The notes under the pieces are model-generated. The model was not told where the DNA came from and searched no databases. It was given only the letters and a program-made list of their open reading frames with translations. From Candidatus Uhrbacteria bacterium (GTDB taxonomy: Bacteria; Patescibacteriota; Patescibacteriia; GWA2-47-26), in the NCBI GenBank assembly GCA_016187515.1, contig JACPJN010000006.1, positions 856 to 64,855 of the forward strand: DNA of 64,000 nucleotides, in the 5' to 3' direction. Position 1 is the stretch's first letter. Every line of letters starts with the position of its first letter. Positions 29,617 to 62,915 of the stretch are shown piece after piece. Both the position numbers and the translations under genes were made by a program.

Positions 29617-29617
29617 A

Positions 29618-29665
29618 ATCTGGAGGTAAATCAAGCGCTTGATTTATCGGATTTACTTAATTTAC
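29618..29665. repeat. GTAAATCAAG iteron-like palindrome (family B) at the ctp/murA junction
   Basis: GGTAAATCAAGCGCTTGATTTATCGGATTTACTTAATTTAC. Confidence 0.7.
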
Positions 29666-30916
29666 TTTTTCTATCTTGGCCCCCAATCCACGCAGTCGCT
29701 CCTCAATATTTTCATATCCCCTCTCAATCTGATAGATATTGTCAATCACGGTCTCGCCCTGCGCCGCAAGCGCGGCGATAACCATCGCGATGCCGGCTCG
29801 GATATCCGGGCTCTCAATCCGTTTGCCGCGCAAGGGTGTCGGCCCTTGGACCAGCGCGCGATGGGGATCGCAAAGAATGATATTGGCGCCCATGCGGTTT
29901 AGAAGATCAACATAGAATAGGCGTCCTTCAAAAATCGTTTCGTGCACCAGCGTGAGTCCCCGCGCCTGCGTTAAAAGCACGGTCAGCGGCGGCTGGAGGT
30001 CAGTTGGAAAACCGGGGTATTCATGGGTAATAACTTTTCCCGGACTGCGATAATCCTCCTTTGCTTGAAGAATCGCAATTGAATCAGAACCTTGCTTAAA
30101 ACGCGCACCCATTCTGCGCAAAATGGTCAGCAAACTTTCGATGTGTTCCGGATTGCACTGCGTAATCGTAATCGGACTGCGCGTGGCGGCCGCGAGAATC
30201 GCGAACATGCCGGTCTCCAGCCGATCCGGAATCATGGCATATTCACTTCCCTGAAGGGCCTCCACGCCCTCAATTTTAATGGTACTGGTACCGGCCCCGG
30301 AAATGCGCGCGCCGCAGCGATTCAGATAATCGGCCAGCGCCGCCACCTCCGGCTCGGAGGCCGCGTTCTTCAGTATCGTGACGCCCGGTACCCTTGTCGC
30401 GGTCATCATCAAGCTTTGGGTCGCCGTAACCGACACAAACGGAAAAAAATAAGACGCGCTCTTAAGCCGTTTGGCGATGAAGCGATACTCTTCGCCATTA
30501 TCTTCAATCTCCACGCCCAGCGCCTTGAATCCTTCAAGAAACTGATCAATCGGACGCCGGCCAATCGCGCATCCGCCCGGATGTCCAATACTCGCTTCCC
30601 CAAAACGCAGTAGGAGCGGACCGATGAGTAAAACTGAAGCCCGCACTTTTCCGGAGAGTTCTCGGCTCAAACTATGGGAGTTAAGCGTAGCGGGATCAAT
30701 GGAAACCTCGCTATCCCTGATTTCCACCCGCGCGCCCAGTTTCTTAATAATATCCAACATCACGCCGACATCATTGATCTTTGGAACGCGCTTGAGCGTA
30801 GTTGCCCCCCTTGCCAAAAGCGCGGCGGGGATGGCAATTAACGCCGCGTTTTTCGCGCCGGAAACCGCGATCTGTCCGGAAAGACGCTGTGGTCCTTGAA
30901 TTACGAATTTAGCCAT
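29657..30916 (-). CDS. murA: UDP-N-acetylglucosamine 1-carboxyvinyltransferase
   Basis: Full-length EPSP-synthase-fold protein with MurA motifs (MAKFVIQGPQRLSGQIAVSGAKNAAL..., catalytic Cys region IGHPGGCAIGRRPIDQ). Confidence 0.9.
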   Translation of the reverse strand: MAKFVIQGPQRLSGQIAVSGAKNAALIAIPAALLARGATTLKRVPKINDVGVMLDIIKKLGARVEIRDSEVSIDPATLNSHSLSRELSGKVRASVLLIGPLLLRFGEASIGHPGGCAIGRRPIDQFLEGFKALGVEIEDNGEEYRFIAKRLKSASYFFPFVSVTATQSLMMTATRVPGVTILKNAASEPEVAALADYLNRCGARISGAGTSTIKIEGVEALQGSEYAMIPDRLETGMFAILAAATRSPITITQCNPEHIESLLTILRRMGARFKQGSDSIAILQAKEDYRSPGKVITHEYPGFPTDLQPPLTVLLTQARGLTLVHETIFEGRLFYVDLLNRMGANIILCDPHRALVQGPTPLRGKRIESPDIRAGIAMVIAALAAQGETVIDNIYQIERGYENIEERLRGLGAKIEKVN

Positions 30917-30984
30917 AGTATCATGGATTATATACTAGTTACTTTCCGTAGGCAAGCCATCACATCCTAATGGCCGACAGCATG

Positions 30985-31110
30985 GATTACATCAAAAATC
31001 ACAAATCACAAGCACCAAATTACAAGGAAATGACAATTTACAAATTACAAATAACAAGTTTGAAGTTTGAGTATTGGAATTTGTAATTTGTTTGTGGTTT
31101 GGCATTTGGA
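30985..31110. repeat. AAATTACAA / TTGTAATTT palindromic repeat cluster (family C) in the murA-PEGA divergent intergenic region
   Basis: CCAAATTACAAGGAAATGACAATTTACAAATTACAAATAACAAG...TTGGAATTTGTAATTTGTTTGTGGTTTGGCATTTGGAATTTGGAATT. Confidence 0.7.
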
Positions 31111-31130
31111 ATTTGGAATTTTTACGCCAT

Positions 31131-31994: not shown

Positions 31995-32007
31995 ACCCCC
32001 TTTATAA

Positions 32008-33231: not shown

Positions 33232-33236
33232 AGATA

Positions 33237-33635
33237 TTAAACAAATGGTTTCTTGCTTCTATCCGGGTAGACTATGCGACGAATGCGTACACCATTAGGT
33301 GTAAAGAAAATAAGCAGCGCAATCTGCATATTAGTTACCCGTAGATATTCTAAAACCTGACGCAAGTGAACATTTTTTAACTCCGGGACCACTTTAATCT
33401 CTACCACGACCTTACCATCAACTATAAAATCCAATCGATCCTCTCCTATCTTTTTTCCAGCATAGCACAAATCCACTGTAAATTCACGAGCATATGCTAT
33501 GCCCAATTGATCAAATTCGGCCGCTATTGCTCTCTGCACATAAGTTTCCCGAATATGCGGCCCTAAACTGTTCCCCACTTTATATGCCGCCCCAATAATT
33601 TTATGAGTTAGCTCTTTATGCGGGTACTCTGCCAT
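33237..33635 (-). CDS. GxxExxY-family (PD-(D/E)xK-like) protein embedded in the glycosyltransferase cluster
   Basis: KELTHKIIGAAYKVGNSLGPHIRETYVQRAIAAEF...LDFIVDGKVVVEIKVV matches the family pattern. Start set at ATG 33635. Confidence 0.5.
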   Translation of the reverse strand: MAEYPHKELTHKIIGAAYKVGNSLGPHIRETYVQRAIAAEFDQLGIAYAREFTVDLCYAGKKIGEDRLDFIVDGKVVVEIKVVPELKNVHLRQVLEYLRVTNMQIALLIFFTPNGVRIRRIVYPDRSKKPFV

Positions 33636-33679
33636 ATAATATCTGATTATATCTGATCCGAATCTGTTTAGTGATCGCG

Positions 33680-34501
33680 TCAGTAACTCTGACGCCACCA
33701 TTTCCACGCATACTTCATCAAACTTTTAATATGGATACGCGTCAGGGGGTTTAGTAACACTGACTTGAGACCAGGCACTTTGGCCGAAGCGCGCTCGTGA
33801 CCGTGTTGAATTATCACATCGCCCTTGTAATACACTGGCCAGCCGCGGGACCAAAAGGTGCGGCAAAGATCCGTGTCTTCAAGATACATAAAATACCGCT
33901 CATCAAAAAATCCTACGTCCTTGAACACTGAGCCGCGGCAAAACAGTGCCGCACCCGTTGCCCAATCAATCGGCTGTGTTTTTGTGTGGTCAAAATCCTT
34001 CATGTGCAGATGTTCAACGCGCCTGCGCGCCCAGTCATATTTTTTATGCAAGCCCAGGCGATAAATTGGTTGGTCCAAAAAACGCGGAAATCGCATGCAG
34101 GAGGGCTGCATCTCACCGTTTGGGAGCATAAGCCGCGGCGCTACGATTCCCACTTTGGGATGCGCTTCCATAAATTGATAAAGCCGCAGAGTTGTGCGCG
34201 GCTGGTTTTCTAAAAATACCAGATCGGGATTGGCAATAAAATAATACTTGGCCTCAAATTGTTTAAGCCCGAGATTATTTCCACGACCAAATCCGACATT
34301 TCTGCCGGCATCGATGAAAACCACGCGATCACCAAACTCCTGTGTGAGCGCCTCCTTTAACCCATCCCTTGACGCATTATCCACAACAACCGGCTGCACC
34401 TTCAAATTTGTGCCTTGAACATCTCGAAATAGCAACCGAAGCATCGCCAAAATTTTATCGCGCATTTTGTAGTTGACTGTCACGGTAATAATATCAAACA
34501 T
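33680..34501 (-). CDS. Family 2 glycosyltransferase
   Basis: GT-A N-terminus (ITVTVNYKMRDK...VVVDNASRDG...) and DxD/ED region. Start set at ATG 34501 (MFDIITV...), which excludes the upstream iteron repeat translated in the longer ORF. Confidence 0.75.
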   Translation of the reverse strand: MFDIITVTVNYKMRDKILAMLRLLFRDVQGTNLKVQPVVVDNASRDGLKEALTQEFGDRVVFIDAGRNVGFGRGNNLGLKQFEAKYYFIANPDLVFLENQPRTTLRLYQFMEAHPKVGIVAPRLMLPNGEMQPSCMRFPRFLDQPIYRLGLHKKYDWARRRVEHLHMKDFDHTKTQPIDWATGAALFCRGSVFKDVGFFDERYFMYLEDTDLCRTFWSRGWPVYYKGDVIIQHGHERASAKVPGLKSVLLNPLTRIHIKSLMKYAWKWWRQSY

Positions 34502-34506
34502 ATTTG

Positions 34507-34575
34507 ATTGAAGTAAATCAAGCGAGACAGGTAAATCAGGCGCTTGACTTGCTTGATTCACTTGATTTACTTGCT
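34507..34575. repeat. Family B iteron array (TAAATCAAG / CTTGATTTA copies) between two GT2 genes
   Basis: AAGTAAATCAAGCGAGACAGGTAAATCAGGCGCTTGACTTGCTTGATTCACTTGATTTACTTGCTTTAC. Confidence 0.75.
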
Positions 34576-35754
34576 TTACTTTTCTAAAAACCACCGCCTC
34601 ATCTCTTCCGGCTTTACTTTATAATTCGCCATAATCGCGCACCGCTTGGCCATGGTGCGCGGCCACAGTTTTTTCACTTCACGCAAGCCTTTCAGTGTTC
34701 CCCAATCGGTGAAAATCAGATATACAAACTTCTTCAGCTCATACCCGAGAATCCACGGCCAGTCTTTTCCAAAGTTAGCACGATGCTCATTCTTTAGCAA
34801 GACCGTGAGATGATTCCGATAGGAATAGTAATTTACATACGCCGCCCGCCCTTTTCGATTTTTCATGGCTGCCGAGTCAGACATTTCTTGCGGTCCTGTC
34901 GCAGTGCGATCATGCCACGCGCGCGCCTCTGCCGTCACATACGCTTTCCATCCCGCGCTCCGCAGGCGGAATGCTAAATCAACATCCTCTTTATAACTTC
35001 CAAATTCATCATCAAACATACTTCCTTCAAATGCCACATCATCAACTGCCTTGCGGCGATAAATGGGGAGTGCACCAGAGACACCGAAAACTTCAACGCC
35101 TCCCCCTCTTAAGGTAAGAGGGGGTTGGGGGGCGTTATGAGTTGTCATTTGTTCTCCTGTTCTCCAATCCACCACTCTCCGATTTCGCAACACCTTCAAT
35201 CCCATTGTATCAATGATATTGGTGAGCGATTCGCTAATTGGAAATTGGAAATTATCCTCCCGATGCGGATCCGCCCTGGGCGGAGAAATTAGAAATTTAC
35301 TAAAATCCCATTTTAGCAGTGTCCCCTGTCCTGCCCCGGCCTCCGGATTGCCGTCCATCATCGCGACTACTTTTTCCAAATAATCCGGGGCCAAATACAT
35401 GTCTTGATTGAGGAGTTGGATGTACTCGGATGGCGTAGGGCGTAGGGCGTAGGGCGTAGAGTTCGAATCAATTTCATTACCATTTGCCCTATGCCCTATG
35501 CTCTTAGCCACCAAACGCACGGCTTGATTATGCCCCCCTGCAAATCCGAGATTTTTTTCATTGCGCACTAGTCGCGCAGGCACTGGCAGATTCTTTATTT
35601 CACGCTCAATTAAATCCGCTGTCCCATCCGTGGAATTATTATCAATCGCCAGTAACTCCCAATCTCTATACGTCTGCCTTCGGAGCGACTCAAAAAGATA
35701 GGGAATATACTTTGCGCCGTTCCAAGCCACTAAATGCACCGAGAGTTTTGCCAT
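34576..35754 (-). CDS. Family 2 glycosyltransferase carrying a heptanucleotide tandem repeat and a hairpin-repeat insertion in frame
   Basis: LSVHLVAWNGAKYIPYLFESLRRQTYRDWELLAIDNNSTDGT GT2 motifs. In-frame inserts (GCGTAGG)x4 at 35433-35460 and the hairpin unit at 35099-35141. Confidence 0.75.
   Translation of the reverse strand: MAKLSVHLVAWNGAKYIPYLFESLRRQTYRDWELLAIDNNSTDGTADLIEREIKNLPVPARLVRNEKNLGFAGGHNQAVRLVAKSIGHRANGNEIDSNSTPYALRPTPSEYIQLLNQDMYLAPDYLEKVVAMMDGNPEAGAGQGTLLKWDFSKFLISPPRADPHREDNFQFPISESLTNIIDTMGLKVLRNRRVVDWRTGEQMTTHNAPQPPLTLRGGGVEVFGVSGALPIYRRKAVDDVAFEGSMFDDEFGSYKEDVDLAFRLRSAGWKAYVTAEARAWHDRTATGPQEMSDSAAMKNRKGRAAYVNYYSYRNHLTVLLKNEHRANFGKDWPWILGYELKKFVYLIFTDWGTLKGLREVKKLWPRTMAKRCAIMANYKVKPEEMRRWFLEK
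35099..35141. repeat. Solo hairpin unit in GT2 34576..35754
   Basis: GCCTCCCCCTCTTAAGGTAAGAGGGGGTTGGGGGGCGTTATGAG. Confidence 0.85.
35433..35460. repeat. Heptanucleotide tandem repeat (GCGTAGG)x4 inside GT2 CDS, paired with inverted (GCCCTAT)x2 at 35487-35503
   Basis: Direct reading of GGCGTAGGGCGTAGGGCGTAGGGCGTAGA. The unit length is not a multiple of three. Confidence 0.8.
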
Positions 35755-35756
35755 AT

Positions 35757-36803
35757 CTATGTTACTCTCTTTCCCTGCATATTCAATTTATCCCCCACCC
35801 ACACAGCCGCAAGCGCCAACGGACGCACCCAATCAAGTAATTCCCCCTCCCACCATGGACGATGTTTTCTAAAATATTGCACCATTGAGCGCGTCATCAT
35901 TTTTTGCTTCGGATACAAGCGCACTTGCTTAAAACTCTGTCCCACATAATCCACGGCCTTGACTGTCGGCGTGTAAGCCACTTCATAACCGGCCTCAATT
36001 GCGCGTTTGCAAAAATCCACTTCTTCAAACCAAATAAAAAATCCTTCATCCAGCATGCCGATTTTATCCAAAAGTTCCCGCCGAATCATAAAGAAAGACC
36101 CGCGAATGGAATCCACCCGCGCTTCTTTACTATAATCAAAATCTTGCATCATATAATGGTCAAGTACTTTTGGAAAAAAATGTGGTACTTTGAGCATAAT
36201 AGCAAGCTGATCTTTGATTGTGGGGAACCTGCGCACGTGGGGGACAGTGACGTAGTCATCTATTTCGTAACTCCCCCTACCCCCTCTTACCCTAAGCGGG
36301 GGTACCGCTCGATCTCCCTCCCTTAAGGTAAGGGAGGGAGGGGGTGGGTTATGAATCGGCGACACCAACCAACACCCTGCTACTCCGACCTTCGCATTTA
36401 CAGGATCATCCATAAACCGTACCATCCCCTCCAATGTCCCCTGAAATACCCGCATATCCGGATTCAGAAGAAGCACATAGCGACCTTGCGAAAGCCGAAT
36501 CGCTTGATTGTTGGCTTTTGCAAAACCAGCATTAAAATCATTGGCAATCACATGTACGGACGGAAATTCCTGCTCCACCATTTGTACTGTCCCATCTTTT
36601 GAAGCATTATCAACCACAAAAACTTCGTAGGTTAAAGAGCCCCCTCCCCTAGCCCCTCCCACCGAGGGAGGGGAATTTCCAATGATTTCCTCCCCCTTGA
36701 TGGGGGAGGATGAAGGAGGGGGTGTGGTTTCCTCCACCGACCTCAAACACTCCCTTAACTTTTCCTTGACGTTCCAACTGACGATAACAATTGATAAATC
36801 CAT
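35757..36803 (-). CDS. Family 2 glycosyltransferase with three in-frame repeat insertions
   Basis: MDLSIVIVSWNVKEKL...FVVDNASKDGT GT2 motifs. Inserts at 36269-36354 and 36639-36730. Confidence 0.8.
   Translation of the reverse strand: MDLSIVIVSWNVKEKLRECLRSVEETTPPPSSSPIKGEEIIGNSPPSVGGARGGGSLTYEVFVVDNASKDGTVQMVEQEFPSVHVIANDFNAGFAKANNQAIRLSQGRYVLLLNPDMRVFQGTLEGMVRFMDDPVNAKVGVAGCWLVSPIHNPPPPSLTLREGDRAVPPLRVRGGRGSYEIDDYVTVPHVRRFPTIKDQLAIMLKVPHFFPKVLDHYMMQDFDYSKEARVDSIRGSFFMIRRELLDKIGMLDEGFFIWFEEVDFCKRAIEAGYEVAYTPTVKAVDYVGQSFKQVRLYPKQKMMTRSMVQYFRKHRPWWEGELLDWVRPLALAAVWVGDKLNMQGKRVT
36269..36354. repeat. Inverted pair of hairpin units in GT2 35757..36803
   Basis: Nearly identical to the pair at 32773-32857 (ACTCCCCCTACCCCCTCTTACCCTAAGCGGGGG...CTCCCTCCCTTAAGGTAAGGGAGGGAGGGGGTGGGTTATGA). 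Confidence 0.85.
36639..36730. repeat. Variant hairpin element (TCCTCCCCCTTGATGGGGGAGGA type) in GT2; second copy at 43037-43133 in GT4
   Basis: GCCCCCTCCCCTAGCCCCTCCCACCGAGGGAGGGGAATTTCC...TCCTCCCCCTTGATGGGGGAGGATGAAGGAGGGGGTG. Both copies encode ...SSPIKGEE.... Confidence 0.85.
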
Positions 36804-36867
36804 AAATGTTTACCTACTATATCCGAAATCTGTTTTTTGGTCAACCCGCCTTAACTCTCCTAAATCT

Positions 36868-36925
36868 GCCATAAACAAATTATGTCAACTATGAGCGATC
36901 GTTTATAATTGACATAATTTAAAAT
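36868..36925. promoter_or_regulatory. AT-rich palindrome AAATTATGTCAA(N26)TTGACATAATTT upstream of the GT2 gene, plus a TTGACC-17-TATAGT promoter closer to the start
   Basis: Inverted 12-bp arms centred near 36895. On the minus strand a sigma-70-like TTGACC(17)TATAGT lies ~13-40 nt upstream of ATG 36803. Confidence 0.4.
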
Positions 36926-37021
36926 ACCAAAATTAATTAAAATAGCCGGCGCCTTGAGCATGTCGCGTGACATGCTTTGGGCACCGGCCGCCTCCTGAAG
37001 AACAACCTTTGTGAGCCTTCG

Positions 37022-37633: not shown

Positions 37634-37677
37634 TGTCTACTCCTTTTCTAGGCGTTTTTGCCTATGGCTACCATATA

Positions 37678-38694: not shown

Positions 38695-39714
38695 CTATCC
38701 GGTCTTAATATGCGGGTTCATGTCTTGCTTTCGAGTGCGTAGTGCCTCCACCCACTCGGTATTTTCCTGATACCACTCTACGGTTTTGCGCAAACCAGCT
38801 TCAAATTTTTCTCGCGGATACTCTGGAATCCATCCCATGCGCATGATTTTGGCAGAATCAATGGCGTAGCGGCGATCATGACCGGGACGATCTTGTACAT
38901 GGCTCATCAGCGACTCGGACTTGCCCAGCATCGTAAGCAGCATTCTCACCACCTCCAAATTTGATCGCTCATTATCCGCGCCAATGTTGTACACCTCACC
39001 CGGCACGCCTTTTTGCAAAAGCAACTCAATCGCGCTCGCATGATCTATGGCATGAATCCAATCGCGCACATATAAACCGTCGCCGTAAATCGGAATCGCC
39101 TCATCTGCCATGGCTTTGAAAATTGTTTGCGGAATAAATTTTTCCGGAAACTGATACGGGCCGTAGTTATTTGAACAATGCGTCACAATCACCGGTGTTT
39201 TGAAGGTTTGAAAGTAAGAACGGCACACGAGATCGCCGCCGGCCTTGCATGCCGCGTAAGGCATATTGGGCGCAAACGGGGTTTCTTCATGAAACAAACG
39301 CTTTTCATCAAGACGCAATGCTCCAAAAACTTCATCGGTTGACACTTGAATAAAAAGCGGCACCTTATATTTTTTAGTGGCTTCGCATAAAACCTGCGGC
39401 CCCATTACATTGGCAGAAATAAAATCCTTGAGTGAACCATGGATCGAACGATCCACATGGGTCTCGGCCGCGAAAGAAATGAGCGCCTCCGGTTTGCTCT
39501 GCTCCACCGCGCGATCCACGGCGTCTTGATCCGCGATATCGCCGCGCACAAGCTTATACCGCGCATCACTGCCAAAATCTTTGAGGTTCAAAGAATTGCC
39601 GGCATAAGTCAGCTTATCAAAATTCACCACGTCCCAATCGTGGTGTTTATTCAAAATATAGCGGATGAAATTGGAACCGATAAATCCGGCTCCGCCGCAG
39701 ACCAGGAGTTTCAT
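38695..39714 (-). CDS. rmlB: dTDP-glucose 4,6-dehydratase
   Basis: MKLLVCGGAGFIGSNF...SDARYKLVRGDI...catalytic YAACKAGGD, with full-length extended SDR architecture. Confidence 0.9.
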   Translation of the reverse strand: MKLLVCGGAGFIGSNFIRYILNKHHDWDVVNFDKLTYAGNSLNLKDFGSDARYKLVRGDIADQDAVDRAVEQSKPEALISFAAETHVDRSIHGSLKDFISANVMGPQVLCEATKKYKVPLFIQVSTDEVFGALRLDEKRLFHEETPFAPNMPYAACKAGGDLVCRSYFQTFKTPVIVTHCSNNYGPYQFPEKFIPQTIFKAMADEAIPIYGDGLYVRDWIHAIDHASAIELLLQKGVPGEVYNIGADNERSNLEVVRMLLTMLGKSESLMSHVQDRPGHDRRYAIDSAKIMRMGWIPEYPREKFEAGLRKTVEWYQENTEWVEALRTRKQDMNPHIKTG

Positions 39715-40127
39715 AGTGATGTCTTAATTTTTTCTGCCAGCGCAACCATCTCCCCTTCTTTATATTCCGTCTGCCCCCAAAGCGCCAGTCCGTCGCCGCG
39801 GCTTCGGGGAATAATATGCAAATGCAGGTGAAAGATCACTTGTCCGGCCGCGGCGCCATTGTTGACTCCCAGATTAAAACCCTCGGCCCCGGTCCCGGAG
39901 ACAACCGCGCGGGCAACCTTTTGAGCGGCCTCCATCATGGCCGAAAGCGCCTCGGGATTGCAATCCATCAGATTCTCACAGTGAATTTTAGGAACCACCA
40001 AGGTGTGTCCCGGACGCACCGGATGAATATCCAAAAATGCTACCACGGCATCATTCTCGTACACTTTCGCGGACGGCAATTCGCCGCTGATAATTTTGCA
40101 AAAAATACAATCTCTCATATCGCGCAA
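39711..40127 (-). CDS. HIT family protein (histidine triad nucleotide hydrolase/transferase)
   Basis: HLHLHIIPR histidine triad. Its start overlaps the rmlB stop by 4 nt. Confidence 0.85.
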   Translation of the reverse strand: MRDMRDCIFCKIISGELPSAKVYENDAVVAFLDIHPVRPGHTLVVPKIHCENLMDCNPEALSAMMEAAQKVARAVVSGTGAEGFNLGVNNGAAAGQVIFHLHLHIIPRSRGDGLALWGQTEYKEGEMVALAEKIKTSL

Positions 40128-40230
40128 GGCAAGTAAATCAAGCGAGACAAGCCCTGTAGTGAAGCTTCGCTCTACTACGGGGCAAGCAAGTCAAGCTGCT
40201 TGATTTACTTGATTTACTTGATTTACCTGA
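40125..40230. repeat. Family B iteron array between HIT and PMT-like genes
   Basis: AAGTAAATCAAGCGAGACA (identical 19-mer to 34509-34527), then an imperfect hairpin, then (CTTGATTTA)x3 CCTGATTCAC. Confidence 0.75.
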
Positions 40231-40231
40231 T

Positions 40232-41899
40232 TCACTCGCCGAGCTTAACTAACTTATACAACCGGTGTCGTCCGGGCAATAGTATCATATCGGCCGCGTA
40301 AAGTCCAGCCCGCCTCCAGAATTGCTCATTTTCTTTGGCCACGTCCATTTCGTTTAGAATCGTCTCGTAATAAAGCGGATAGGGCCGGAGCTCGCGAAAC
40401 TGCTCGGCGGTAAGATCGCGAAATCGCGCGACCACTTCACGGCTGGGAAAAATAATCTTATCCGCGCGGTCAGTAAGAATTATGGAATCGGCCGGCGTAA
40501 GCGAAAGGATATGCTCGCGCACCTTGATATTTTCCCGCAGTACCGCGTTGAGCTCCACTAAATTTTCATCCGAACTCCACAACAGCGTCCGCGCTGAAAA
40601 AAACAAAAAGAAAATGCCAGCGCATACCGCCAGTATTTTTCCAAAACGTCGAAACTGAATTACCCGCAGTCCATAAGCGGCCAGCGGAGTCGTCAATAGA
40701 TAAAGCGGCAAAAAATAACGGGTAAAAGAAGTGCCCAGGGAGGGCAGTAGATCCAAGCGGTCGCGCAAGAGCCATGATCCGTAAAATTGGAGAAAAAATA
40801 GCGTGAGCAAAAGTACTCCCAAACCCCACCAGCGCATCCGCCGCGCGGTGGTACTCTTTCTTAAAAACAGCGCCGCTACACCGATGACGATAAGCAGCGC
40901 GTACCACCAAAACAACCGCGCCAAATATTCCCAGCCCACCTGCGCGGTGCGCGCCAGATCAAATCCAAACGGGGTTACCAGAATGCTTACGGTATCCGCG
41001 AGATTTTTTGGCTGAAACAATTCCGGGTACCCAGTCTTAAACGGACTGCCGTAAAGCCGGTTTTGGAGCGCGAGAATCGCAAAAATTGGAAATAATCCCC
41101 CGAGTGCCAAGGGGATAAGCGCTACGCGCCTGCGCAGCGCGCGCAGCGCAAACACCGCGAAAAATACCGGCGCGAGCCACAACCCTTCCGTAGGCCGCAG
41201 GGTCACGGCGACTCCGGCCATCAGTCCGGCCAAAAATGACGCGGCGCGTTTTTTCACTAGCGGCTGACTCGCGGTGGGATTTTCCTTAAGGATCTCTTGA
41301 TCAGCCGCCCCTCGCTCATGACGCAATCGAACCGTCCGCCCTAAAAAATACAAAGCCAAAATCGTCGTGCTGATAAACAGCGCGTGCGGATAAAAAGGTC
41401 TGGCTCCCCAATAAAGCACGGCGGGATGTAACCCATATAAAATTGCGGAAAACAATCCAATCGTCGCCCCAAAGATCCTTCGGATAAATCCGTACCAAGC
41501 GCCTACCGTAAGACCGGAAAGTATCGCGGTCAGGGCGAGCGTACCGGTCGTCCCCAGCGCTTTGGCCAGGATTCCAAAAAGAGTCGGAAAACTTATAAAG
41601 CCCACCGGAATAAAAGTATTCCCAGCCCTTTTTATGCTGCGCGGCGCTACAAAGGCGGGCGCGTCTTTAATTAAGGTCGGTACGCGCACGCTTGTGGCCT
41701 GCTGCATCTGCCGCGCGAAAAGCGCGTTGGCGGCCTCATCCGGTGAATTATAAATTCCTCTGGGAAATGACAGGGAAACAAAAAAAATAAAAGCGCTGTG
41801 GGCAAGCGCGACCAAGATAACCGCCGCCTTGGAAATTCTTCCGCTTCCCGCGCTGACAAGCGGCGGCTCAAGAGTGCTCAAGCGTTCGGGCATGGACAA
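40232..41899 (-). CDS. Polytopic membrane glycosyltransferase, PMT/ArnT-like (GT39/GT83-type)
   Basis: 555 aa, >10 predicted TM segments. The overall topology and Arg/Asp-containing first loop are typical of dolichyl/undecaprenyl-phosphate-sugar dependent transferases. Confidence 0.5.
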   Translation of the reverse strand: MSMPERLSTLEPPLVSAGSGRISKAAVILVALAHSAFIFFVSLSFPRGIYNSPDEAANALFARQMQQATSVRVPTLIKDAPAFVAPRSIKRAGNTFIPVGFISFPTLFGILAKALGTTGTLALTAILSGLTVGAWYGFIRRIFGATIGLFSAILYGLHPAVLYWGARPFYPHALFISTTILALYFLGRTVRLRHERGAADQEILKENPTASQPLVKKRAASFLAGLMAGVAVTLRPTEGLWLAPVFFAVFALRALRRRVALIPLALGGLFPIFAILALQNRLYGSPFKTGYPELFQPKNLADTVSILVTPFGFDLARTAQVGWEYLARLFWWYALLIVIGVAALFLRKSTTARRMRWWGLGVLLLTLFFLQFYGSWLLRDRLDLLPSLGTSFTRYFLPLYLLTTPLAAYGLRVIQFRRFGKILAVCAGIFFLFFSARTLLWSSDENLVELNAVLRENIKVREHILSLTPADSIILTDRADKIIFPSREVVARFRDLTAEQFRELRPYPLYYETILNEMDVAKENEQFWRRAGLYAADMILLPGRHRLYKLVKLGE

Positions 41900-45209: not shown

Positions 45210-45249
45210 ATATCGGATGTCCCTATCTTAACATAAAAAATCAGGGCCT

Positions 45250-45355
45250 GACTAGCCCCTAAAAAATTCCAAATTACAAGCACCAAAACACAAAGAAATT
45301 ACAAGCTCCAAATTACAAATCACAAAGTTTGTGATTTGTGATTTGTAATTTGTTA
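45250..45355. repeat. Family C palindrome CAAATTACAAATCACAAAGTTTGTGATTTGTGATTTGTAATTTG between GT4 and UXS-like genes
   Basis: Near-perfect 18-bp arms. Preceded by AAATTACAAGCACCAAAACACAAAGAAATTACAAGCTCCAAATTACAAATCACAAA. Confidence 0.75.
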
Positions 45356-46372: not shown

Positions 46373-46374
46373 AA

Positions 46375-46452
46375 TTGTTGAGGTAAATCAAGTGAATCAA
46401 GTAAATCAAGTGCTGGATTTACTTGCCTCGCCTGATTTACCTGATTTACTCT
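46375..46452. repeat. Family B iteron array between UXS-like and S8 peptidase genes
   Basis: GGTAAATCAAGTGAATCAAGTAAATCAAGTGCTGGATTTACTTGCCTCGCCTGATTTACCTGATTTAC. Confidence 0.75.
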
Positions 46453-46455
46453 CAA

Positions 46456-48526: not shown

Positions 48527-48559
48527 ACCCAAAAACAAGAACCCCGCGGCCGCGGGGTT
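48527..48559 (-). terminator. Rho-independent terminator for the 1233-aa surface protein gene
   Basis: Perfect palindrome AACCCCGCGGCCGCGGGGTT (48540-48559) followed on the minus strand by a T-run (CTTGTTTTTGGG). Confidence 0.7.
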
Positions 48560-48600
48560 CGTTGTGTTCGATTTTTGCGAATCGAGAACGTGAGTTGCCG

Positions 48601-51600
48601 CTAGTACACCATGGTTCCTCCAATGACGGGCAGGTTTTTGACGAGCGTGCCGGCAATGTTGGTCGCCGCGCCAGAACCAACTTCATCCCACTGGAGTTCA
48701 TTAAGAGCAGCCAAGGTCGTGTTGGTGGACCCGGCTTCCTCAAGAACGTCGAAACGCACAGTATCGTCACTGGCGGAGGAGGCGCCGGTCGTGTCTACTT
48801 TCAAGACATAGGTCTTGGAAGTGCCGGCGGCAATGGTTCGCGAGGTCGTAAAGACCAGACGAGCATAGCCAACTTCCTCGGTTCCAGAGAGTGTACCATC
48901 AGTGGCGGCTGAACCGTAGAGCGTCCAGTCCGCATCCACATCCAACTGGGTAGTCAGGTCGCTGGAATCATACAATGACCAGGAAGTAACCGTATCAATG
49001 GGGCCGGTGGCATCACCATTGACATTCCAGTCCGAATTACCGTTGTCGGTAAGCGTGGCTTTGAAGGTAATCGCCTCAAGCACCACATCGCCGGAAGCAT
49101 CTGCCGCGACTGTGAAGCGCAACGCTTCATTCAATCCGGGCACGGAAGCGCCGGAGGGTGAGGCCGCGTGCAAGGTGATGACTGGCTTGGTCTTGCGGAC
49201 CGTCATGGCATTGCCGGTAATGGTGGAGGTATCCGTGTAACAAGTGGAGAGTCCACCGCCATCGGAACAAGCCGTGGTCTGGCCAGCGCCGTGGACATCG
49301 CTGCCTTCATCCAAAGATGATCCGGAGGCAGCGCCAACGGCTTCAAACGTGCCGGCAAAGTCCAGACGGAAAGTCGGGGTGTCGCCGGATACGCCCGATT
49401 CGGAAATCGTGGCGAAATCCGCGGCCACCGTCATCACCGTGGTCTTGTCGCGCGGCACATAGAAGTTCAGGTCGCTAAAGTCCGCGTTGGCGGAAGCCAG
49501 GACGCCGGTCTTGGTCTCCGTCGTGCCATCCTGTTTTGGATAGGTCAGCTTGATCTGGACTACGCCAGTGTCATCCGCGGTCGCGTCATTGGAGATGCGC
49601 AGCCGCTTGACCCGGAAGTCCTCGTTGGCCGCCAAGAATTTAATCTTGGTCATGTTCACGCCGGAGGCGCCGCCCAAGATGATGGCGGAAAGCGGGGTAT
49701 CGCCGTCCGGATCAACCGTGAGCGTGCCGGAAGTGGCGGAAGTCAGGACCACGGTTGGCGTGTTGTTCCTCGGATTTGACCAAGTCGCGTCGCCGTCAGT
49801 CGGGGTTACGGAATTGCTGTCTTTGTCTTGCGCGGTAATACCGGCAGCAGTGTCAATACCGAGCCAAGCCGTATCCGCGGCGGAAGACATCTGGGTGGTG
49901 GCCAAGCTAACTCGCGCCGTGAGTTTCTTGGTTGCGCCAGCCGGAATTGTCCAGTTCATGTTATCGAAGGTCAGTACTCCGGCCGTAGTTGGAGATTTTG
50001 CTTCAGACACGGCGGTATCGCCATCATATAGTCGGGCCGTCAGCACCACATCGTCAAACTCTGCCGCAGTGTAGGTGCCGCCGGTGTCATCGCCTTGTCC
50101 GGTCATCACAATCTGGGTTACTTTGATGTCCGATTGCGCGCCGGCCGCGAAAGACAGACCAACCATTTGTACGCCGGTTGCGCCCTTAACGGAAGTTCCA
50201 GAGACCGGCGTAGAAGCCAATTGCACGGTAAGCGAGCTCGAACGAATCGTCATGGTATTGCCGGTTACATCGGATTGACCGCCGATAATGTCAGTAACCG
50301 CCACGTTCTGCGCAGTGGACACCTCGCGGATCGATCCGGCTTCAAAGTCATTCAAGGCGAAGGTGAATCCACGAGTCGTAACATCGTTGGCCGTTACTTC
50401 ACTGGCGGCAATGTCCGCGGTGACGACCAGTTTGCGGGTCTGACCAGCCGCGAGCGTCCAGGACTGGGTCAGGTCGTTATTCCAGACCGCGCTGGAGGCC
50501 GCGGTAGTGGAAGTACCGGCGGTAACCGTGGCGCCCGAAAGCTCCACCGGTCCCATCAGCACGGCTCCGGTATCCGCGTCTTTGATCTTGATATCAGTGA
50601 AGTAGTTGGTCGTGCCGTTGGAAAGCACGCCCAAAACTTGCGCGCCGGCTTCCGCCAGGGTCAGTTCTATCTCGCGGATTTCCAGCGCTTGATCGCCAGC
50701 CGAGAGCGAGAACTTGTAGAACTGAACATCTTGGCTGCCCAGCGCGATATCCGAGGCGGACGGACCATTAAAGGCCACAGTTACGCGGCCGCCCTGGGTG
50801 GTGACGAATGAACCGCCAGTCGCGGGAGTTGACGCGGCCGTTGCGGCTGCGGCAAAACTCGTGAAGGTGGTGGTAGAGCCATAGCCATACACTTTGTCAA
50901 CCACCAAAAGATCCGACGGGTAAGTTGAATCAATGTAAGTGGTTACCGTGCGGCCTCCGCGGCCGCCTACGTTGGCTTTTACCGTAAACAACCGATTGGA
51001 ACCCTGACCCAAAGCAAACGGAGCGCTGGCCAGGTCAAAGGTTACGCGATCGGATGATACAGTGCCGTCGGCCAGTTTGGTAGAACCCTGATACAGAGCA
51101 AAAGCGCTCAAATCAGACACGGTTACCGTACCGCCGACAGTTACCACGGCGCGGCGAACTTCAACATCATTTACGCCGGCGGTAATGCGGAACTCACCAA
51201 TCGCGACGTTCGTTTGTCCAATCGTGGGGTTAGCCGGATCAGAACCGCGAGTCAAGGTTACGGTGGAGACGCCTTGTGATCCGATGGAATTGGTCGCGCC
51301 AGTCAAAGGCAAGCCCGACACTGATGCGCTCGTACCAATCGCAATCAACTGGAAAGCATGGGTGTCTCCGGCCGTAGCAACTGTACCGGCGGTTAAGGAG
51401 TTTACATCCACCACTACGGAAAGCGTCTTTGAGCCATTGGCCGGTACCGCGATCGAAAGCGCGGCAAACTCGGTCTGCCGGGTCTGGGAAGTAAGCGTGC
51501 GTCCGGAAGTCAAACGCAGCGCGCCATCATACAGATAAACCGCGCTAATGTCGTTGGAAGAACCGACGCCCACGCTTTTAACCGTTGCTCCGGTAACCGT

Positions 51601-52302
51601 TTGCGCGGCTGCTCCGGCGGTGAGTGTAAACTTCAGGACTACTACCGAAGAAGCTCCTCCCGGAATTACTCCGGCAGCCGGATTATCCGAAGCCAGGGCC
51701 GCGGAAAGCGGACCGGTGGCGACTGCCGCCGCTGGAGTGGACTGTAAGCCCTTGTCTGCGCCAATGTCCGCGGCCAGTGCGGCTGCTACCGGCGCGACAG
51801 TGGCTTCTGCTCCGGCGCTGTAATTAGCTTGGAAGGCCTCGGGAATGCTGTAGGTGGCGGCGGTGGCTCCGCAGACCGCGGCCTTGTTGGCCGCTGAAAC
51901 CATGCGGCGTACTCCGCCTTTTTCCACCACATAGGTATTGGTATCCGGTCCCGCGAACATTACGCAGGATCCGGGCTTGGCAGTAACGTTACCGCCAAAG
52001 GCAATGGCCTGGAGTTCTGCTTCAGTTACATCTTTAACCGCGGCAAAACTCGTGCCATTCCAGGTCTCGTAGGTCTTTGAACTGGAGAAAAGATAGCGTT
52101 TCGCGTCCGAACCATAGTAATACACCGGACGTCCTGGACCAGAAGTTGACTTGGCAGTGCCCACAATAAGGTCACCGGCAGTCAAAGTTGCCGCGCTAGC
52201 CAAAGGAATGGCAATGAACGCCGCAGACATGGCCCAGGCGATCGTCGCGACCACTACTGCCCAGGTAAACGCTTTCTTTCCAAATACTAAAGTGTTACTC
52301 AT
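48601..52302 (-). CDS. Large Thr/Ala/Gly/Ser-rich cell-surface protein (1233 aa, signal/TM anchor, beta-rich repeats)
   Basis: N-terminal hydrophobic anchor, then very low-complexity T/A/G/S/V-rich sequence typical of S-layer/adhesin-like proteins. GC-rich because of its composition. Confidence 0.7.
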   Translation of the reverse strand: MSNTLVFGKKAFTWAVVVATIAWAMSAAFIAIPLASAATLTAGDLIVGTAKSTSGPGRPVYYYGSDAKRYLFSSSKTYETWNGTSFAAVKDVTEAELQAIAFGGNVTAKPGSCVMFAGPDTNTYVVEKGGVRRMVSAANKAAVCGATAATYSIPEAFQANYSAGAEATVAPVAAALAADIGADKGLQSTPAAAVATGPLSAALASDNPAAGVIPGGASSVVVLKFTLTAGAAAQTVTGATVKSVGVGSSNDISAVYLYDGALRLTSGRTLTSQTRQTEFAALSIAVPANGSKTLSVVVDVNSLTAGTVATAGDTHAFQLIAIGTSASVSGLPLTGATNSIGSQGVSTVTLTRGSDPANPTIGQTNVAIGEFRITAGVNDVEVRRAVVTVGGTVTVSDLSAFALYQGSTKLADGTVSSDRVTFDLASAPFALGQGSNRLFTVKANVGGRGGRTVTTYIDSTYPSDLLVVDKVYGYGSTTTFTSFAAAATAASTPATGGSFVTTQGGRVTVAFNGPSASDIALGSQDVQFYKFSLSAGDQALEIREIELTLAEAGAQVLGVLSNGTTNYFTDIKIKDADTGAVLMGPVELSGATVTAGTSTTAASSAVWNNDLTQSWTLAAGQTRKLVVTADIAASEVTANDVTTRGFTFALNDFEAGSIREVSTAQNVAVTDIIGGQSDVTGNTMTIRSSSLTVQLASTPVSGTSVKGATGVQMVGLSFAAGAQSDIKVTQIVMTGQGDDTGGTYTAAEFDDVVLTARLYDGDTAVSEAKSPTTAGVLTFDNMNWTIPAGATKKLTARVSLATTQMSSAADTAWLGIDTAAGITAQDKDSNSVTPTDGDATWSNPRNNTPTVVLTSATSGTLTVDPDGDTPLSAIILGGASGVNMTKIKFLAANEDFRVKRLRISNDATADDTGVVQIKLTYPKQDGTTETKTGVLASANADFSDLNFYVPRDKTTVMTVAADFATISESGVSGDTPTFRLDFAGTFEAVGAASGSSLDEGSDVHGAGQTTACSDGGGLSTCYTDTSTITGNAMTVRKTKPVITLHAASPSGASVPGLNEALRFTVAADASGDVVLEAITFKATLTDNGNSDWNVNGDATGPIDTVTSWSLYDSSDLTTQLDVDADWTLYGSAATDGTLSGTEEVGYARLVFTTSRTIAAGTSKTYVLKVDTTGASSASDDTVRFDVLEEAGSTNTTLAALNELQWDEVGSGAATNIAGTLVKNLPVIGGTMVY

Positions 52303-52654
52303 ATTTTGATTTGGAGAAGATTGTATATTTCTCTTAATACTTACTTGATTTTACTGACCAAGAATCCTGTCCGACGGTTGTCGGGCTCGACCTTTAGAAC
52401 TCTTAAATAATTTGCCCACAAAGGGGTGCGACAATAACAGTCAGGGTAACTGACTTTTGCTGTGGTACCCATTCGTGTGGCTCATTTCCCGCATGGAATT
52501 TGAACCAGTATACACTATCTCTATATCAATGAACAATTAGGTGTGGATAACTGACGCATTTCCCTCACCCTCCCCTCTCCCTTAGGGAGAGGGTGGCCGC
52601 AGGCCGGGTGAGGGGCACACCAAGCGTTTGTGGCCTAGCCACATAATGCTTACT

Positions 52655-54104: not shown

Positions 54105-54214
54105 GGACATTAAGCGAGTTATTGAGTTATTGAGTTATTGGTTATGAGTTATTATTTGTATTGATCTAACGTACTTAATAACCCAGTAACTAATAACCTA
54201 ATAACTATCACTCT

Positions 54215-54484: not shown

Positions 54485-54543
54485 CCAAACTCCTTTACCC
54501 CGCTAAGCAGGGCCTAACCCGGCCATGCTGGACAAAGCCGATA

Positions 54544-55836: not shown

Positions 55837-55963
55837 ATGCGATGGTTACCCTCACCCCCGCCCTCTCCCATAAAGGGAGAGGGAGTAATGGTGTTTCGTA
55901 TATCTACATTATAGCATGGCTATCTTTTTTTCCCCAAACTTTGGAATTACGAAACCCAACTTT

Positions 55964-56050
55964 TCCTCCCCTTAAGGTAAGGGGAGGCCAGGAGGGGTTA
56001 TGAGTTTCGTTCGTAACCCCCTCTCGCTCCCCCTTACCCTAAGGGGGAGA
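55964..56050. repeat. Intergenic inverted pair of hairpin units downstream of the giant surface protein gene
   Basis: CCTCCCCTTAAGGTAAGGGGAGGCCAGGAGGGGTTATGAGTTTCGTTCGTAACCCCCTCTCGCTCCCCCTTACCCTAAGGGGGAG. Confidence 0.85.
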
Positions 56051-56157
56051 ACTAAAAACGAGTGAGGCCGAGCACAAACAGCGGGGTGCCCGCTGGGGCA
56101 CCCCGACTGTAGTTTTTGCGCGAGTGGTCTGGGCGCTAGCGGCCCAACCCCTCACCC

Positions 56158-61944: not shown

Positions 61945-62128
61945 ATAACCTTAAAAAGATTAAATATTCGATTAAAACGTTATCCACAGCGTGGAAACGC
62001 CTAAATTTATATTATTCTATCACATTTTTGCACACCCTATCCAGTGCAAGATGTGGATAACCTTGGTTATTTTGGTTATTCGGCGGTCAAAAAAATAAGA
62101 CGGCGGCCTCCTTAAAAACCTTACTTAC

Positions 62129-62827
62129 TCACCAACTGATCAAAATACTGGGATTCAAAATTTCCCGATTAGTAATGACCATTTTGAGGTTATCCACCAC
62201 AATAAGCTGTTTTCCCGCTAATTGCTGGGCGGTTGGGGTAATGGCCACCTCAAATACCGCGGAATCATCACATTTCACCTCTGACATTTGACATCTGACA
62301 TTCCACCGCACCATCCGCGTTGCCGGTTCATAACTTAAACCTTGCGCTTGCGGCGCAAATCCGGTCCATTCGGCATGGGAGCCCAATTTACCCCCTACCA
62401 CAACACCGGCGCCCGCTCCCGCAACCCTCCAAAACACTTTTAGTCGGGTTTCTTCCCCAACCTTGGGCGGCCATGGTCCGCGGCCTAGTTGCTCGCCCTC
62501 CTTGGAAAAATATAAGGCCTCGGTCTCTAGATATGGTAGAGATGGCTTAATTTGTCCAGAATATAGTGGACTCTTCGTTTCACCCTCTATCTGCACCAAC
62601 TCAATCTCCCTTTCCCCTTGTGGGAAAGGGCTGGGGTAAGGGGTAATCAAATAATCTTCGGGTTTATCCACAGGCGGTGTCTTGACAAATAAAACTATGC
62701 TTATCCCCAAAAGCGCCGCCATCAACACCCCTAACCCAATTTCAAACACGCGATGCCGCCACGGCAGCTTGGTTTCGCAAATCAGATGATTAGGATCAAG
62801 CGGATCATGTTGACAAACAAATTGCAT
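62129..62827 (-). CDS. Hypothetical membrane-anchored protein (232 aa)
   Basis: One TM helix (LGVLMAALLGISIVLFV) and an in-frame hairpin-unit insert (PYPSPFPQGEREIELV at 62600-62640). Confidence 0.4.
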   Translation of the reverse strand: MQFVCQHDPLDPNHLICETKLPWRHRVFEIGLGVLMAALLGISIVLFVKTPPVDKPEDYLITPYPSPFPQGEREIELVQIEGETKSPLYSGQIKPSLPYLETEALYFSKEGEQLGRGPWPPKVGEETRLKVFWRVAGAGAGVVVGGKLGSHAEWTGFAPQAQGLSYEPATRMVRWNVRCQMSEVKCDDSAVFEVAITPTAQQLAGKQLIVVDNLKMVITNREILNPSILISW

Positions 62828-62915
62828 ATTGTTATTGAGTAAATCAGGTAAAGCAAGTAAATCAGGCCCGTCAAGTTTTTGATTTACTTGTCTTGCTTGC
62901 CTCGCTTGATTTACT
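62828..62915. repeat. Family B iteron array between the hypothetical membrane protein and FG-GAP genes
   Basis: GAGTAAATCAGGTAAAGCAAGTAAATCAGG...GATTTACTTGTCTTGCTTGCCTCGCTTGATTTAC. Confidence 0.75.

Follow-up and report, generated by a model that had tools for sequence, protein, structure and literature searches.

Five arrays of a short repeated unit lie in the analysed window, a stretch of 64,000 nucleotides of DNA from a Candidatus Uhrbacteria MAG, and each of them fills the spacer between two minus-strand genes. The exact motif TAAATCARG occurs 16 times in the window against 1.11 expected copies (maximum of 4 in 100 shuffles), and 16 of 16 copies fall within five intervals, each of which is a gene-to-gene spacer (Table 1). 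The arrays at five consecutive-gene junctions, all between minus-strand genes, that a sequence-only reading of this DNA had described are therefore real. With the generalised unit GYRARNCAR, nine arrays of at least three units were counted in the window versus none in 30 shuffles, and runs of three or more consecutive units were confined to the same five sites. Outside the clusters, matches with two mismatches stayed at about background level; scattered single copies were absent, and coding DNA had none. With 89.5% of the window taken up by the listed ORFs, the probability of five out of five independent sites being non-coding is about 1.3e-5. The 19-mer AAGTAAATCAAGCGAGACA is indeed identical at two sites and occurs exactly twice in the window (34511-34529 and 40131-40149), although its first copy had been placed at 34509, 2 nt off its true start.

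Table 1. Repeat elements W1-W5 and the hairpin nested in W3, with the start codon of the downstream gene and the predicted RNA fold.
Feature	Position	Junction and content	Downstream ATG	Fold
W1	29617-29665	Short degenerate copy; entire MurA-to-S41-protease spacer (29617-29656) plus MurA last codons and TAA stop	29616	z = -1.8
W2	34502-34579	Entire GT2-to-GT2 spacer (34502-34575) plus upstream TAA stop	34501	-24.5 kcal/mol, z = -4.2
W3	40119-40235	Entire PMT_2-like-to-HIT spacer	40118	z = -5.5
Nested G/C-rich hairpin CCCTGTAGTGAAGCTTCGCTCTACTACGGGG	40152-40182	In W3 loop		
W4	46373-46458	Entire S8 subtilase/FG-GAP-to-NAD-epimerase spacer plus upstream TAA stop	46372	-35.8 kcal/mol, z = -6.95
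W5	62828-62916	Entire spacer from FG-GAP protein to 232-aa ORF plus upstream TAG stop, directly adjoining the first unit	62827	z = -3.7

Over its full length each of the five sites, in spacers of 40-113 nt, forms one long imperfect palindrome whose arms consist of tandem 9-bp units; elements of the family measure about 40-115 bp. The units themselves are not palindromic and begin with GTAA, GTGA or GCGA. On the coding strand the window sites follow the layout stop-(GTAAATCAAG)n-loop-(CTTGATTTAC)m, and the distances to the downstream ATG given in the sequence-only reading hold on this strand, where 9-14 nt separate the last CTTGATTTAC unit from the start codon. The GTAAATCAAG copies start at the upstream stop codon or at most ~6 nt past it, and in several cases the element extends into the final codons of the gene before it and provides the stop codon of that gene. 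W2-W5 each carry three units on the plus strand adjoining four inverted units; W1 has three inverted units and a single plus-strand unit. In every full copy, GTAAATCAAG and CTTGATTTAC form terminal inverted repeats at the two ends, and one asymmetric module, CGAGRCA, is present per element beside one terminal unit. Among the copies compared, this module was placed on the sense 5' side in six, on the ATG side in five, in both arms in one and was absent in one; the element thus occurs in both orientations relative to transcription.

Within this common plan the individual copies differ in detail. The coding strand of W1 reads GTAAATTAA-GTAAATCCG-ATAAATCAAG-CG-CTTGATTTAC-ctccagatt-ATG, with the MurA stop in the 9-nt register of the units. 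In W2, with four units on the stop side and three on the ATG side, the upstream stop lies inside the unit GTAAAGCAAG, and the CGAGACA module is on the plus strand, that is, beside the ATG. W3 has four stop-side units, with the TGA stop inside GTGAATCAGG, and its ATG side reads GCTTGTCTCGCTTGATTTAC-14 nt-ATG; its palindrome is interrupted by the nested hairpin, and locus L126 has a similar G/C hairpin behind the same CGAGACAAGC module, at 13575-13610. W4 and W5 both have four stop-side units bearing a CGAGGCA module and three ATG-side units. The W4 palindrome reaches into its flanks, so that stop and ATG share one predicted helix, and the tail of W5 reads ctcaataacaat-ATG. W4 was identical across three independent Logan assemblies, and W5 was identical in two other samples (L144 and L145).

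The elements make gene callers over-extend N-termini. As the sequence-only reading had recognised, three ORFs of the window enter the repeats and have artefactual N-termini: 28369-29634 (TTG start), 33680-34594 (GTG start, VVFRKVKQVNQVNQASQAPDLPVSLDLLQSN-M...) and 39711-40127 (TTG start). The true start of HIT, MRDCIFCK, is backed by orthologues. A 31-aa artefactual peptide searched against 1.84 billion representatives returned three irrelevant repeat proteins. The HIT and GT2 entries in the protein collection consulted are over-extended gene calls. One short-read contig, from Logan, breaks off 25 nt into W3, within the repeat.

The predicted RNA folds of W2-W5 and of two loci elsewhere (L032 and L100) had z-scores from -3.7 to -7.0; the fold of W1 was weak. 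In a strand-asymmetry test the difference between sense and antisense MFE ranged from -8.4 to +9.2 kcal/mol without a trend, the two strands folding equally well, and the A/G variants of the unit yield G.U pairs on either strand randomly. With such a hairpin directly after each stop codon, and with A-rich sequence ahead of and U-rich sequence after some copies (L032, L122, L125), the elements could be taken for combined intrinsic terminators and promoters, a kind of module that the sequence-only reading had suggested, and would then delimit transcription units. This role is highly improbable. Intrinsic terminators combine a G/C-rich stem with a U-tract; here the stems are AU-rich with no T-run after them, no U-tract terminator consensus was found on the coding strand at the sites, and a terminator consensus scan gave only marginal matches on the plus (antisense) strand, at 34534 and 40183. 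Canonical G/C-rich, T-tract terminators exist elsewhere in the window (e.g., 48539-48560 and 45243-45259), which indicates that the organism uses the usual kind of terminator. Consensus scanning of the coding strand revealed neither a sigma-70 promoter at the five sites (the 3' arm was also inspected by hand) nor a -35/-10 pair upstream of the ATGs, and the spacers inside these apparent operons leave no room for a promoter. In addition, the copy at L124 lies downstream of a canonical terminator and the copy at L127 downstream of a promoter, TTTACA-17-TATAAT, which ends 7 nt ahead of the element, so that the element would constitute the whole 5' leader.

At Rfam 15 gathering score the sole match in the window was a tRNA (3289-3359), with none for the element. 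A literature search with the unit retrieved only primer and shRNA coincidences, and tandem strings gave zero matches; the element has no described Rfam family or literature match. Two other readings, as DnaA boxes and as sequence complementary to the 16S anti-SD, were dropped after no match was found by eye.

The element is found outside the window as well. At least seven metagenome contigs with a GC content of 35-51% carry it. It is also present in L032/L130, which is Candidatus Nomurabacteria, a different NCBI candidate phylum from the Candidatus Uhrbacteria of the window. W3 and the Nomurabacteria locus L032 have the identical 21-mer AGTAAATCAAGCGAGACAAGC in common. The Nomurabacteria copies lie at rpsB-tsf and mreC-tgt junctions, and further metagenome contigs have copies at rpsI-grpE, ychF, GT2 and 5'-UTR sites. 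Copy density was 5 in 64 kb in the window, 2 in 20.6 kb in L130 and 2 in 14.5 kb in L126, which has no synteny with the window. Every copy is intergenic, and each except L126b, a half element, is an inverted array. They are found in 5' leaders or in the very short gaps within compact operons, just ahead of a start codon: 2-14 nt separate the last unit from the ATG in 13 of 13 oriented copies, and at L127, L126b and L124 the element still abuts the start codon despite a far longer intergenic region. The stop codon shares the 9-nt register with the first unit in about 7 of the 11 co-directional copies. A pattern scan of genome contigs with TGATTTACYTGATTTAC gave mainly chance 17-mer matches; L032 and L100 were the real ones among the matches listed. 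A pattern scan of viral contigs yielded one match, chance-like, in a contig of 28% GC. Arrays with the same design of an arm made of tandem units appeared in the genome scan in L026 (Dolichospermum) and L042 (labelled Margulisiibacteriota).

The element is specific to particular genomes, and relatives have empty sites at the orthologous positions. The rpsB-tsf spacer measures 75 nt when filled (66 nt in one strain); empty, it is 8 nt at 70% Tsf identity and 4 nt, or replaced by overlapping genes, at 56%. Upstream of HIT the spacer is 113 nt in the window versus 13 and 5 nt in Uhrbacteria relatives. The genomes used for these empty-site comparisons are 56-82% identical in marker proteins, with 70% protein identity in the closest empty/filled pair, and exact element boundaries are therefore not definable from them. 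No array was present in ~105 kb from relatives, where ~8 would be expected at the density of the window, and equivalent spacers in relatives contain other palindrome families. The unit number is polymorphic, with four versus three CTTGATTTA units between contigs whose Tsf is 100% identical. The pair L123 and L125 is a recombination mosaic, 100% identical from ~15 nt before the stop, and its comparison therefore says nothing on purifying selection on the element.

This comparative evidence best supports the MITE-like mobile origin that the sequence-only reading had listed as an alternative to its main inference of a regulon, which did not stand. We consider it probable (roughly 0.58) that the arrays are a REP/MITE/BOX/STRR-like, non-autonomous palindromic repeat family that is co-transcribed as a long hairpin. 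The five arrays would then be copies of one small non-coding, hairpin-forming family in some uncultured groundwater CPR bacteria of the Parcubacteria group, and the element appears to behave like selfish miniature mobile DNA rather than an envelope-gene control switch. Copies may have spread by transposition-like or template-switch copying through an enzyme not found in the sequence examined, with a RAYT/IS200-type HUH transposase that acts on the hairpin and a MITE transposase that targets TA as candidates. Replication slippage would lengthen or shorten the arms, and the family has probably moved horizontally between CPR lineages. Because the copies sit inside transcription units, they are expected to be co-transcribed and to fold into AU-rich hairpins of 20-30 bp. 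Any effect of these hairpins on the mRNA would at most be a by-product: they might block an exonuclease, offer a site to RNase III or modulate initiation further downstream.

Several observations stand against a mobile family. That every oriented copy adjoins a start codon is more than insertion into short spacers would by itself account for. An identical 21-mer in different candidate phyla is not what REP or MITE elements usually show and could reflect the constraint of a conserved host factor. Neither the 64-kb window nor L126 nor the Pfam-labelled genes of L130 and L134-L143 yielded a transposase or RAYT gene, and the units are non-palindromic and lack a GTAG or CGTC tag. There was no unambiguous target-site duplication and no other direct repeat at the flanks; these mostly read A|GTAAATC...GATTTAC|T, which is compatible with a TA duplication yet indistinguishable from the unit's own TA.

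The sequence-only reading had favoured binding-site arrays for a dedicated regulator coordinating the envelope and glycosylation genes. More generally, a regulator or nucleoid protein might bind the 9-bp direct and inverted copies and control the flanking genes: the tandem arrangement looks like an iteron or operator layout, the unit sequence is kept beyond base-pairing needs across genomes of very different GC, and the window encodes HTH proteins such as a Trp_repressor-like ORF (18563-18925). We nevertheless judge this very improbable. Iterons and operators belong to promoter or origin regions and to a coherent gene set; the sites here are in operon-internal spacers, between tightly packed co-directional genes and without a sigma-70 promoter consensus. 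Across genomes the neighbouring genes have unrelated functions, with no theme uniting rpsB-tsf, mreC-tgt, rpsI-grpE, ychF, GT2, HIT, epimerase and S41 protease; the same element thus sits at unrelated housekeeping junctions, and the orthologous junctions of relatives lack it. Unit number changes between strains while gene content does not, and a 9-bp period would be out of helical phase by ~50 degrees per step, judging from B-DNA geometry. The arrays are hence very unlikely to be operators or iterons of a local regulon.

DNA uptake sequences (DUS) of Neisseria often form inverted pairs after genes. A similar function of the 10-mer would fit its conservation across lineages and its inverted-pair arrangement in intergenic DNA, but is scarcely credible, as all 16 copies are gathered in five clusters, tandem arrays of 3-5 units are not a DUS/USS trait, and close relatives lack the 10-mer.

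A possible, though doubtful, alternative to a mobile family is a selected post-transcriptional RNA module, in which the hairpin itself would be functional and the stop and start codons would lie at the base of one helix. It could stabilise the transcript between cistrons or be processed there by RNase III, protect the 5' end as a terminal stem, or serve translational coupling where Shine-Dalgarno sequences are largely absent; most genes of the window lack an upstream GGAGG. The stability of the hairpins, the stop codons in unit register, the constant proximity of the ATG and the L127 copy, which would form the entire 5' leader behind its promoter, are in line with this idea. A precedent exists in the cyanobacterial STRR hairpins of the hupS-hupL spacer, for which transcript stabilisation or translational coupling has been proposed (PMC2670836). 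Neither folding energy nor G.U usage, however, shows a sense-strand bias, the asymmetric CGAGRCA is found in both orientations, and orthologous junctions of relatives work with spacers of 4-13 nt and no hairpin. Adjacency to stop and start codons is moreover largely expected from insertion into 4-10 nt spacers. Mobile origin followed by domestication could also lead to such a module.

A further reading, which we think unlikely, takes the element as a cis-module that sits just ahead of start codons, is shared by different candidate phyla through conservation and is recognised by a conserved CPR factor. If this were true, the hairpin would join the upstream stop and the downstream AUG at its helix base, allowing re-initiation or defined RNase III processing in operons largely without Shine-Dalgarno sequences; as a whole 5' leader it would cap the 5' end of the mRNA. 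The mobile-element features would then describe the mode of spread and not a lack of function.

Small, non-coding, intergenic elements with terminal inverted repeats include the Correia elements of Neisseria, whose RNA is cut by RNase III, and the pneumococcal BOX elements with their variable internal tandem modules. The family proposed here shares with MITE, Correia and BOX elements its small size, non-coding and intergenic nature, terminal inverted repeats, co-transcribed long hairpins and presence/absence differences; as with MITEs, both filled and empty orthologous sites were seen (rpsB-tsf and HIT spacers, at 56-82% marker identity). Unlike a MITE, it has no clear target-site duplication and no cognate IS was seen here, it is much shorter, its arms are wholly a 9-bp microsatellite, and it always abuts a start codon. 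With REP/REPIN sequences it has in common that copies are extragenic, numerous, hairpin-forming, often transcribed, arranged in inverted pairs forming a larger hairpin, and patchy among relatives (PMC3733652; PMC3116915). A REP unit, however, is a palindrome of 20-40 bp with a GTAG or CGTC tag, and the 9-bp non-palindromic units, which start with GTAA, fall outside that definition (PMC3733652). The likeness to STRR lies in the design: there, as here, short intergenic tandem units in inverted arrays form a hairpin between co-transcribed genes (PMC2670836). STRR units usually measure 7 bp, whereas those described here are 9 bp long with another sequence and a CPR host instead of cyanobacteria, and they differ further in their fixed terminal units, the conserved asymmetric CGAGRCA and the same sequence across candidate phyla. 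Given the different period and host phylum, we regard the element as an analogue and not a member of STRR. TIGR arrays, known from CPR bacteria and phages, have 36-nt units with edge and loop repeats around two variable spacers and a Nop-domain Tas gene (PMC12045711). A TIGR array was rejected, with a 9-nt period, no variable spacers and no Nop-domain ORF in the window.

A sequence common to candidate phyla points to horizontal exchange of non-coding DNA among co-resident CPR bacteria, or to a conserved protein that recognises it. Should the hairpins influence how mRNA is processed or translated in these organisms, where Shine-Dalgarno use is rare, they would offer a tractable entry to CPR gene expression, a process still out of reach of culture work. 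The window also holds at least three further palindromic repeat families, including one with in-frame insertions within genes for enzymes, which fits a genome permissive to such elements. CPR genomes have been described as streamlined, yet together with the arrays at least four palindromic repeat families are present here.

The window has 16 occurrences of the motif TAAATCARG where 1.1 would be expected, and all 16 copies fall within the five intervals where the sequence-only reading had described motif arrays at gene junctions (repeat copies W1-W5, see table). That reading had also reported an identical 19-mer at two sites; AAGTAAATCAAGCGAGACA has exactly two occurrences, and the one at 40131 was right, but the first lies at 34511 instead of 34509. 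Reading the five sites gave a broader unit consensus, GYRARNCAR, with the variants GTAAATCAA, GTGAATCAA, GTAAAGCAA, GCGAGACAA and GCAAGTCAA. A window scan detected nine arrays of at least three consecutive GYRARNCAR units, every one at W1-W5; 30 shuffles gave none. At W2-W5 three units on the plus-strand side are opposed by four inverted units. As unit arrays oppose inverted arrays, each of W1-W5 is one long imperfect palindrome. RNA folds of W2-W5 reached -22.6 to -53.9 kcal/mol (z = -3.7 to -7.0), while the short, decayed W1 had z = -1.8. Two further spacers in this run of genes contain degenerate unit-like strings, which may be decayed copies.

Repeat copies, other hairpins and neighboring features (window positions unless a locus is named)
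Feature	Position	Context
W1	29617-29665	
W2	34502-34579	
W3	40119-40235	
W4	46373-46458	
W5	62828-62916	
Degenerate string GTAAAATCAAGTAAGTA	~52340-52356	~40 nt upstream of ATG of ORF 48601-52302
Degenerate string TGAGTAAGTAAGG	~61945-61960	past stop of ORF 62129-62827
CCCCTCC...GGGGAGG G/C-rich palindromes	4676-4745, 36640-36722, 43039-43121, 43629-43706	inside ORFs
CCCCTCC...GGGGAGG G/C-rich palindromes	544-663, 55953-56051	intergenic
Third hairpin family, arm period ~7-8 nt (CAAATTACAAATCACAAA / TTTGTGATTTGTAATTTG)	45263-45359	directly past stop codon, then canonical bidirectional terminator 45243-45262
Third hairpin family	~30990-31075	
ORFs with C-terminal PEP-utilisers mobile domain	8890-10407, 10453-11859, 12765-14501, 17036-18520, 20752-21783	five paralogs within 8890-22994
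PPDK_N gene	21852-22994	adjoins the five paralogs
Trp_repressor-like ORF	18563-18925	
PDDEXK_3 (GxxExxY-type PD-(D/E)XK nuclease) gene	33237-33707	wedged among glycosyltransferase genes
Conserved hairpin, ~90 nt (...CACGGATATTTTTTTRCTAAAAAATTCCTCGTGCTCGCG...)	L135 5878-6007, L138 4956-5169	mreC-tgt spacer, two Nomurabacteria relatives
UDP-glucose dehydrogenase gene with intein and LAGLIDADG domains	L140 6250-8985	Uhrbacteria relative

As had been proposed, the sites separate consecutive minus-strand genes, forming the entire spacer in 5/5 cases; 89.5% of the window is coding, and the probability of five non-coding sites is ~1e-5. The coding-strand layout is stop-(GTAAATCAAG)n-loop-(CTTGATTTAC)m-9 to 14 nt-ATG, in agreement with the claim that an inverted copy lies within ~15 bp of the ATG. 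The stop codon is a TAA or TGA within a unit at W1-W3; at W4 and W5 it precedes the first unit by no more than 6 nt. Three longest-ORF calls run through repeats, as noticed earlier, and the HIT start codon was confirmed by comparison with orthologs; the element thus causes annotation errors. Next downstream after the GT2 gene that follows W2 comes the PDDEXK_3 gene, with a 28-nt overlap onto the end of this GT2.

The dTDP-glucose dehydratase encoded in the window shares 100% identity with a Candidatus Uhrbacteria MAG protein. Outside the window, a genome collection was scanned with two tandem units; most of the listed matches were chance, but the element was recovered from L032, which is Candidatus Nomurabacteria RIFCSPLOWO2_01_FULL_42_20, and from L100. 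The 21-mer AGTAAATCAAGCGAGACAAGC is common to L032 and W3. Within the Parcubacteria group, Uhrbacteria and Nomurabacteria count as two distinct candidate phyla. A stricter pattern found the element on at least seven metagenome contigs (GC 35-51%). A pattern scan of the viral collection gave a single match that looks like chance, and no element among the matches listed. L100 and L141 are contigs CAZBUQ010000004.1 and CAZBUQ010000001.1 of assembly GCA_964495135.1, labeled 'uncultured Gammaproteobacteria'. This assembly has contigs with Uhrbacteria-like genes and synteny, its RmlB being 81% identical to the window's, and the bin is probably mislabeled or mixed.

Among 13-14 copies, every copy has the ends GTAAATCAAG ... 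CTTGATTTAC, and all except W1 contain one CGAGRCA module immediately internal to one terminal unit; the carrier L124 has it on both arms. CGAGRCA is found on either side (sense 5' in six copies, beside the ATG in five), so that relative to transcription the element comes in both orientations. Sense and antisense folds are equal in mean stability, and A/G unit variants give G.U pairs randomly on either strand; this lack of strand difference counts against selection on sense-transcript structure alone. In W3 and L126b (the second copy on L126) a separate G/C-rich hairpin is nested beside the CGAGACAAGC module.

The sequence-only reading had suggested a dedicated-regulator (iteron) regulon for envelope and glycosylation genes. 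The flanking genes share no functional theme: MurA-S41 protease, GT2-GT2, PMT-HIT and S8-epimerase in the window, rpsB-tsf and mreC-tgt in Nomurabacteria (L130), rpsI-grpE at L123/L125, and ychF (L126) or a GT2 (L122) with the element upstream. Orthologous sites were empty. At rpsB-tsf of relatives with 70% and 56% Tsf identity the element was not found, the spacers being 8 nt, 4 nt or replaced by gene overlap; their mreC-tgt spacers hold other palindromes. Uhrbacteria relatives (RmlB 82% and 76% identical to the window's) keep the order CDP-OH transferase, PMT-like, HIT, RmlB, with an ORF of 115-128 aa directly upstream of HIT and spacers of 13 and 5 nt before it. No arrays were present in ~105 kb of relatives' DNA; at the density seen in the window there should be about eight. 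With no common theme and empty orthologous sites, the regulon is not supported. Among contigs with identical Tsf, those of three assemblies have four CTTGATTTA units and that of a fourth has three, so unit number changes among near-identical strains. W4 and W5 were identical in other samples, and one short-read contig terminates 25 nt into W3. L123 and L125 diverge by 8-9% until ~15 nt before the rpsI stop and are 100% identical for 2.1 kb from the element onward, either a recombination or an assembly breakpoint that falls at the element.

Terminator/promoter modules, also proposed, found no support, as consensus scans of the coding strand at W1-W5 revealed neither a sigma-70 promoter nor a stem-plus-T-tract terminator; ordinary G/C-rich terminators are present elsewhere in the window. 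At L124 the element comes after a canonical terminator, and at L127 a TTTACA-17-TATAAT promoter is followed by 7 nt, the element and, 2 nt further, the ATG. Rfam gave no match. The TIGR arrays known from CPR bacteria do not fit, as they consist of 36-nt units that include variable spacers and lie beside a Nop-domain gene (PMC12045711). Uptake sequences were rejected, as these would also occur as single units scattered over coding DNA, which is not seen here.

The best-supported reading is the MITE-like origin that had been offered as an alternative: the five arrays are small, non-autonomous palindromic repeats. It is based on high within-genome similarity, both orientations, unrelated neighbors, abundance that depends on the genome, orthologous sites that lack the element, slippage in unit number, nesting with a different hairpin, and the presence of further palindrome families, one of them lying in frame within genes. 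The DNA examined yielded neither a RAYT nor any other transposase, so we infer the mode of spread. A literature search found no occurrence of the tandem motif; the 9-bp-unit palindromic element is previously undescribed, its general kind already known. MITE or BOX-type modular repeats are among its three closest analogs. The others are cyanobacterial STRR hairpins, with 7-bp units, e.g., between hupS and hupL (PMC2670836), and REP/REPIN elements (PMC3733652, PMC3116915); REP by definition was rejected, as the units are not tagged palindromes.

A function for the element, all forms taken together, is rather unlikely. It would draw on conservation across candidate phyla and on position beside start codons: the last unit lies 2-14 nt from the start codon in 13/13 oriented copies, including L127 and L126b, where the intergenic region far exceeds element length. 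Of the regularities, this adjacency alone is not fully accounted for by insertion into short spacers. As copies lie inside transcription units, they would be transcribed as predicted hairpins of 20-30 bp, which could plausibly affect mRNA stability, RNase III processing or downstream initiation. The element is relevant to mobile non-coding DNA in CPR genomes regarded as 'streamlined', and it may offer a way into the study of gene expression that does without Shine-Dalgarno sequences.

In long ORFs (M23 peptidase, GT2, GT4) the CCCCTCC...GGGGAGG palindromes form in-frame inserts of ~25 aa, e.g., PPLLTSPRAGEEISPPFQGGVRGG, across which Pfam domain matches stretch; they look like an intragenic family of palindromic repeats comparable to the RPE of Rickettsia. 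In a relative (L134), the mreC-tgt spacer is occupied by a similar palindrome. Hairpins of a fourth family (CACTTCCATG...CATGGAAGTG, or GCACTCCCAT...ATGGGAGTGC) end 12-15 nt ahead of the ATG in two PEP-utilisers paralogs (8890-10407 and 17036-18520) and in the Trp_repressor-like ORF.
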